64,000 nt of DNA from a virus. Shown here in pieces: positions 42,983-43,180 of the stretch; the stretch's first letter is position 1, and each line of letters opens with the position of its first letter. The stretch is from the UHGV virus genome UHGV-0098755, one strand, 5' to 3'. The translations under genes were made by a program, and so were the position numbers. Below the pieces are notes generated by a model. It made no database searches, was not told the DNA's origin, and saw nothing but the letters and a program-made list of their open reading frames with translations.

Positions 42983-43180
42983 TTAGTAAATTGATTTACC
43001 AAAGTATTTGTACCAAGTCGGACGTTGATCAATTTTTTCATCTAAGCGTGCTTGATTTATCGCAATGGACGCTTCGGACGGGTCATAATTTCCTCCAAGT
43101 AGTTGATGAATATATAGTATCAAAACCCTTGGAGGAAGTAAACAACTATTTTTCTGAAGCGCCTGAAATATATTTTTCAA
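42983..43180 (-). pseudogene. denV: denV (endonuclease V) 3' remnant
   Basis: Last ~35 codons ([36 protein letters not shown]) match the T4 DenV C-terminus as recalled; upstream codons are unrelated and contain an early promoter. Confidence 0.6.
43108..43146 (-). promoter_or_regulatory. T4-type early promoter inside the denV remnant
   Basis: GTTTAC (43138-43143), 17 nt, GATACTATATATTC. Confidence 0.65.

Follow-up and report, generated by a model that had tools for sequence, protein, structure and literature searches.

We conclude with high confidence that the DenV-like feature at positions 42,983 to 43,180 is a dead denV gene, made by a 310-bp deletion between two 13-nt direct repeats. The window, to which coordinates refer unless stated otherwise, is a 64,000-nt stretch of the virus genome UHGV-0098755, and the genomes that it matched best in a search of a phage collection were those of Tequatrovirus, with identities of up to 98.5% over 2.4 kb. 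What had been flagged is a 65-codon open reading frame with a TTG start (42983-43180, minus strand), which is a mechanical reading frame and not a gene: it joins the tail of an internal-protein gene, a promoter, a hairpin and a remnant of denV in one frame.

The denV portion was recognized in searches of several kinds. In a tblastn search of the whole window, T4 DenV residues 96-137 aligned to positions 43111-42986 at 73.8% identity (E=2.7e-16), the sole significant DenV match in the 64 kb. Among solved structures, those of T4 endonuclease V (2END, 1VAS, 1ENJ and others) were matched at residues 96-137 (E=1.8e-14), and PHROG 1183 was matched at profile positions 100-138 of 139 (E=1e-7). A first-pass annotation of the sequence had described denV as reduced to a 3' remnant in which the last ~35 codons resemble DenV, a description that these searches bear out, and had named a spurious C-terminal match as one way in which it could be wrong; the match is far beyond chance in the tblastn, structure and PHROG searches. 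The real homology starts at the deletion junction, with 35 codons (43090-42986) followed by the stop (42983-42985). The remnant (42983-43090, minus strand) thus corresponds to DenV residues ~102-137 with the original TAA, and its codons are out of frame with the native denV ATG. The upstream codons, which had rightly been called unrelated to DenV, comprise the 3' end of an internal-head-protein gene together with the denV promoter, hairpin, Shine-Dalgarno sequence and ATG, all of it noncoding for DenV; the first 35 nt of the reading frame lie over the 3' end of that 93-aa gene (PHROG 3499), an overlap also noted at first pass. No Pfam family was found on the 65-aa translation (0 matches). Taken together, homology, the syntenic position behind the denV promoter and the same flanks identify the remnant, on sequence grounds, as an orthologue of denV by descent that is now a pseudogene.

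The locus lies on the minus strand, as do the genes around it, nudE (43950-44405), the lysozyme gene e (43424-43912) and genes for internal proteins. The upstream neighbour of the remnant is the 93-aa internal head protein gene (43146-43427, minus strand; PHROG 3499, E=1.2e-46), which carries the name "internal head protein" in the RefSeq record of G8 and in Lutter. On the downstream side, an internal head protein gene of 86 aa (42716-42976, minus strand; MKMYQEFIVEA...; PHROG 2667, E=1.9e-19, and so annotated in RefSeq G8), is the first real gene downstream of the kept denV promoter, and it is followed by an ipIII-like internal virion protein gene of 192 aa (42076-42654, minus strand; PHROG 5341, E=8.8e-118), named internal protein III in 235Ecol030PP. 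The counterpart of the 86-aa gene is split into two open reading frames in Lutter (local 3241-3496) and is shortened in G2133 (613-789) and JM10 (838-1017), and the internal-protein genes of the denV locus are themselves variable or decaying. Elsewhere in the window, a tRNA cluster (48288-49115, minus strand) holds 10 genes (Arg, Asn, Tyr, Met, Thr, Ser, Pro, Gly, Leu, Gln) spaced 0-10 nt apart, leaving no room for a gene between them; in 235Ecol030PP the tRNAs number 8, a segB homing-endonuclease gene has been inserted after tRNA-Arg, and Asn and Tyr are missing.

The nature of the lesion became apparent when the minus strand was aligned with 235Ecol030PP, the closest relative, and with Lutter, in which denV is intact, with 137 codons, at the corresponding position. 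Relative to Lutter, exactly 310 bp are missing from the window and from 235Ecol030PP alike, between near-identical flanks, and a clean gap of 310 bp is also seen against the intact denV of JK42. To the left of the gap, the upstream internal-protein gene still ends in its stop codon, and the promoter, the GGAGG Shine-Dalgarno sequence and the ATG of denV are all in place; to the right, the sequence runs from denV codon ~102 through the original stop to the ribosome-binding site of the next gene. The left breakpoint therefore coincides with the denV start codon, ~28 nt downstream of the -10 hexamer, and the right one lies inside denV coding sequence, at codons ~101-105. No foreign DNA was found at the junction in the alignment.

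In JK42, a repeat finder returned AATTATGACCCGT in two perfect copies with a start-to-start spacing of 310, the longest direct repeat of the denV region of that phage, and NicPhage carries the same perfect pair. The two copies agree at 11 of 13 positions in Lutter and at 12 of 13 in G2133, and the pair is absent from T4. A single copy is kept in the window (43078-43090, minus strand), where it forms the deletion junction and contains the native denV ATG (43084-43086); one copy is likewise present in 13 other phages, and Shinka has a one-base variant of it. A 52-nt probe across the junction was matched contiguously by 15 records, and in intact-denV phages it splits into overlapping halves, 1-31 and 19-52, so that 13 nt must be common to both sides of the junction. 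As in microhomology-mediated deletion, then, each endpoint carries a copy of a repeat, the segment lost is as long as the repeat spacing and one copy is left.

Deletions of this kind, between short direct repeats, are well known in T4. An ancestor with intact denV would have carried AATTATGACCCGT twice, the first copy over the start codon (AATT-ATG-ACC-CGT, Met-Thr-Arg) and the second at codons ~101-105 (AAT-TAT-GAC-CCG-T, Asn-Tyr-Asp-Pro), and slippage during replication or illegitimate recombination between the copies would have removed 310 bp and kept one copy. Both the molecular route and the exact ancestral allele with a perfect repeat pair are reconstructed here, the latter because the perfect pair was seen in just two intact-denV phages (JK42 and NicPhage, both labelled Mosigvirus) and was not found in a scan of IMG/VR.

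The same deletion length was found in 14 other sequenced phages. Those labelled Tequatrovirus are G4498, G8, BF15, Phaginator, 235Ecol030PP and Shinka, those labelled Mosigvirus are F27, JM10 and FL18, and B1.1 has no genus label; JM17, FL12, FL23 and FL44 count as carriers by their search matches and belong to the same accession series as the F27/JM10/FL18 group. The carriers come from Germany, Poland, the USA and Denmark and from sources with no stated country, and their flanks are mosaic. Because the deletion is present in 14 other sequenced phages of several origins, it is not an assembly artefact; it is real, stable and widespread. A scan for the junction detected one contig in IMG/VR and none among JGI metagenome contigs. 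At base 43112, two nucleotides past the -10 hexamer, the window reads TACTATAT, as against TACTATAC in 13 of the 13 non-T4 relatives fetched, T4 having G at this position (TACTATAG); the phage of the window therefore differs from every carrier fetched.

Loss of the coding function of denV appears complete. Since 310 = 3 x 103 + 1, the reading frame is shifted by the deletion, and the native Shine-Dalgarno sequence and ATG no longer open a reading frame of ~137-138 codons. After the +1 frameshift they open instead a 9-codon frame, ATG ACC CGT CCG AAG CGT CCA TTG CGA TAA (MTRPKRPLR*; 43057-43086, minus strand). Of the DenV N-terminus M-T-R alone survives, codons from ~4 to ~101 having been deleted, so that the gene is short of its first three quarters. 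The Pfam domain Pyr_excise (PF03013), which spans residues 1-87 of the intact Lutter DenV (E=3.3e-14), is missing from the remnant. Catalysis by endonuclease V depends on the alpha-amino group of Thr2 as nucleophile and on Arg3, Arg22, Glu23 and Arg26, and this N-terminal set of catalytic residues is not present in the remnant. In the remnant's own frame the available starts are two TTG codons, both without a Shine-Dalgarno sequence: the first (43180) is inside the upstream gene and the second is in the -10 box, where RAST placed the start of a 46-aa "endonuclease" in B1.1 and FL18. As read from the sequence, the remnant frame thus has no credible start, and the last 35 denV codons would stay untranslated and free to decay.

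With the Pyr_excise region, the catalytic N-terminus and Glu23 lost and the frame shifted, the denV locus cannot give rise to a functional endonuclease V, in agreement with the first-pass view that the phage lacks functional DenV. A full-length denV elsewhere at the locus, which would have spoken against that view, was not found: tblastn detected no second copy in the 64-kb window, and in the full 235Ecol030PP genome the DenV-like segment is the same remnant only. By analogy with this closest relative, a second denV in the part of the phage genome beyond the window would be excluded. With the remnant unable to encode an active enzyme, the phage would be expected to be UV-sensitive, about like a T4 denV mutant. 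In classical phage genetics, losing phage-encoded dimer excision raises UV sensitivity roughly two-fold.

What the deletion left upstream is the native control region of denV. The early promoter (G-TTTACT, 17 nt, TACTAT; 43114-43143, minus strand) is intact, and its part at 43114-43142 is an exact match to TTTACW-N17-TAYWAT, the early-promoter (PeSL) consensus of T4 and PST (PMC4122927), so that the complete early promoter reported at first pass is indeed present. This consensus has 17 matches in the window, all on the minus strand, against 0.38 expected by chance; examples lie at 5271, 18617, 29749, 47418 and 51350, and many of the matches have TG or TGG/TGA before the -10 hexamer. A generic sigma-70 scan did not list the denV promoter, which scores 8 of 12 against TTGACA/TATAAT where the threshold was 9. 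The promoter had been read as a feature of the breakpoint, a reading that fails because the promoter is native: Lutter, JK42, NicPhage, G2133 and T4 all have it at this position in front of an intact denV. The Lutter record annotates the same 30 nt as a promoter, and in the 1986 T4 record X04567 a -10 box, the denV rRNA binding site and an inverted repeat, C/C', are marked at this place.

A hairpin (43090-43137, minus strand) encloses the -10 region. The arms of its 10-bp outer stem are TTCCTCCAAG (43128-43137), in the spacer between the -35 and -10 boxes, and CTTGGAGGAA (43090-43099), which covers the native denV Shine-Dalgarno sequence GGAGG (43092-43096, minus strand), whose equivalent is annotated in T4 X04567. 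The predicted fold has an energy of -19.1 kcal/mol (z=-3.6), and none of 200 shuffled sequences was as stable. T4 folds an equivalent 10-bp stem from different arm sequences (local 1726-1768 of its record), labelled in X04567 as the inverted repeat C/C' and a possible ipII terminator; among four sequences we counted 3 compensatory pairs, with the T4 3' arm offset in the alignment, and each sequence forms a 10-bp stem when folded by itself. The kept upstream element is thus intergenic and combines a consensus promoter with an adjacent stable stem-loop, as in a PeSL cassette, and its activity is a prediction. Because the arms of the stem are the promoter spacer and the Shine-Dalgarno sequence, the latter would be hidden in transcripts that read through from upstream and would not be hidden in transcripts from the denV promoter. 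The same logic of Shine-Dalgarno sequestration applies to T4 gene e. The promoter and hairpin probably still fire, in which case they would act solely as one more early promoter of the internal-protein genes that follow.

Decay of the remnant was judged against the intact alleles of Lutter, JK42/NicPhage and T4 (...IAISQ...KIAQ...YKYY...), the intact G2133 allele reading YKYF. The F27 remnant has the change S to N; FL18 has S to N and Y to F; and the window, 235Ecol030PP, G4498, G8, BF15, Phaginator and B1.1 have S to N, Y to F and A to D. The JM10 remnant (PP400777) has Y to F, one synonymous change and a 1-nt deletion that breaks the frame (GATGAAAAAA to GATAAAAAA). FL12, FL23 and FL44 match at 96% over 99 nt, the same result as JM10, and probably share its 1-nt deletion. 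The Shinka junction (MZ502379) reads ATGTCC where the others read ATGACC, with T for A at the base at which the repeat copies of the G2133 type differ, the rest of its remnant being the same as in the intact G2133 allele. All three substitutions were at one stage regarded as pure decay; this was partly withdrawn, since Y to F is also found in the intact G2133 allele and is therefore a polymorphism. The changes S to N and A to D and the frameshift occur in deletion carriers only, the S and A being kept in all five intact alleles examined. These changes are consistent with relaxed constraint, in what are very few sequences.

The annotation of the remnant varies among records. Most annotators, RefSeq included, call no gene there, whereas the B1.1 and FL18 records (local 686-826 in each) carry the 46-aa "endonuclease" running from the TTG of the -10 box into the remnant, as does JM17 according to its search annotation; these 46-aa records are a mis-annotated pseudogene. 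Across phage records in general, DenV is full-length (~138 aa) in 1061 of the 1119 that match, from many genera, and the other 58 cover less than 80% of the protein. In one record, ESCO47 (OM386662; 29628-29735), DenV residues 1-36 alone match and the annotation is "endonuclease V N-glysidase"; this appears to be another, independent truncated allele of denV.

Several other explanations of the locus can be weighed against a deletion between direct repeats. The first-pass annotation proposed that recombination between promoter-stem-loop (PeSL) modules had deleted or replaced the N-terminal part of denV, leaving the promoter at the breakpoint. A PeSL-type promoter and hairpin do stand immediately upstream of the junction, the internal-protein genes near denV differ between T4 and the phage of the window, and PeSL shuffling is on record for T4-type phages and has been suggested for the IP locus (PMC2839356, PMC4122927). 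However, the same promoter and hairpin precede intact denV in T4, Lutter, JK42, NicPhage and G2133, and the right breakpoint falls in denV coding sequence, where intact alleles have neither promoter nor hairpin. Both endpoints lie in the 13-nt direct repeat, 310 bp apart, the deleted length is that of the repeat spacing, and no foreign sequence is present at the junction. The endpoints are thus not both in cassettes, PeSL-mediated shuffling as a candidate mechanism is ruled out by the alignments, and we consider this account highly improbable. An origin in the opposite direction, with the short form ancestral and full-length denV gained by insertion, has in its favour the formal symmetry of insertions and deletions only. 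Against it, full-length DenV is found across many genera in those 1061 of 1119 records and has solved structures, and the short form is frameshifted and without the catalytic domain; we give it virtually no credence. It could also be argued that the remnant is still a functional small gene, for instance one whose product, a C-terminal peptide of DenV, binds DNA or has a regulatory role, given that the 65-aa (TTG) or 46-aa frame is open in most carriers and that RAST annotated an "endonuclease" in B1.1 and FL18. The C-terminal WYKYY segment of T4 endonuclease V also helps to bind substrate, a further point in favour of a functional remnant. Neither TTG start has a Shine-Dalgarno sequence, though, and the nearest promoter would start transcription only downstream of the one in the -10 box, while the strong Shine-Dalgarno sequence and ATG feed the other frame. 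The frame is broken by the 1-nt deletion in JM10 and, by their identical search results, in FL12, FL23 and FL44; S to N and A to D affect residues on which all five intact alleles examined agree; Pfam finds no domain; and most annotators, with RefSeq among them, see no gene. A functional remnant is accordingly a very unlikely reading.

A different question is whether the deletion between the direct repeats arose once and spread by descent and recombination, or recurred at a repeat-driven hotspot. Recurrence would fit the carriers being labelled as two genera with mosaic flanks, and a deletion between direct repeats yields the same junction each time. It would also fit Shinka, in which a deletion of the same length has T for A at the G2133-type repeat mismatch and the remnant equals the intact G2133 allele. 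On the other side, one stepwise series from Shinka through JM10 and FL18 to the window type is possible, with a single origin followed by point mutations and with F27 explained by recombination, and T-even phages recombine very often. A claim of independent recurrent deletions drawn from the Shinka variant was dropped, as the single-origin series fits equally well. On balance recurrence is a possibility worth keeping in mind, although we are inclined to doubt it. A broader scenario may be offered as speculation that is more doubtful still: the 13-nt repeat would be a recurrent hotspot of denV deletion in one class of alleles, the null would have passed between Tequatrovirus and Mosigvirus of gut and sewage, where loss of UV repair is neutral or favoured, and the promoter, hairpin and 9-codon frame would have been co-opted as an early leader for the internal-protein genes.

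The phage of the window and at least 14 sequenced relatives are, on the direct-repeat deletion that we favour, natural denV nulls, which bears on UV inactivation and on the survival of therapeutic or environmental T-even phages, and the database records that call the remnant an "endonuclease" stand corrected. In a T-even phage, the locus is a clean case of a natural deletion between short direct repeats, and a later series of pseudogene decay is visible. The allele is so far undescribed, but it is an ordinary pseudogene and a known kind of natural variation, and it represents no new biology.

The remnant is orthologous to the 3' end of T4 denV; its 35 codons share ~80% amino-acid identity with T4 and lie behind the same module of promoter, hairpin and Shine-Dalgarno sequence and in the same neighbourhood of e and internal-protein genes. 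Unlike T4, the window is without codons ~2-101, its frame is shifted and the Pfam domain is gone. The gene order also differs, being e-ipIII-ipII-denV in T4 and e-ip(93 aa)-denV-ip(86 aa)-ipIII in the phage of the window.

The phenotype had been likened at first pass to that of T2 and T6, and a comparison of the junction with their sequences proposed; the lesion proves not to be theirs. No DenV-like sequence was detected at E<=1 in the 12 kb around e (the 58-70 kb stretch) of either T2 (AP018813) or T6 (MH550421). In T6, regB lies directly beside e (local 2495-3512) and the T4 block of vs.3-vs.8, denV, ipII and ipIII is missing, while T2 (local 3428-5485) has kept vs.6/vs.7-like genes and one ipIII-sized gene. 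Since no DenV-like sequence is left around e in these phages, their lesions differ from that of the window, and T2 and T6 appear to be without denV at the e locus through different, larger lesions. Natural loss of denV would accordingly have come about by at least three lesions, those of T2, of T6 and of the window type. A literature search returned no usable account of denV in T2/T6 or of natural denV loss. T2 and T6 are reportedly more UV-sensitive than T4 for want of v-gene function. The expected phenotype is thus the same in T4 v mutants, T2, T6 and the phage of the window, and the lesion in the window is a precise 310-bp intragenic deletion with the promoter and the 3' end left in place.

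Deletions between short direct repeats are also said to be known from the rII region of T4. In those deletions as in the one described here, a short direct repeat bounds the deletion, one copy is kept and the length equals the spacing; the rII deletions are laboratory mutants, whereas the allele of the window is natural and fixed in wild phages. Finally, the window shares with the PeSL cassettes (Arbiol et al., 2010; Comeau et al., 2014) a consensus promoter and a stable stem-loop, but here the -10 box lies within the stem, which also covers the following gene's Shine-Dalgarno sequence, and the element did not mediate the deletion beside which it stands.
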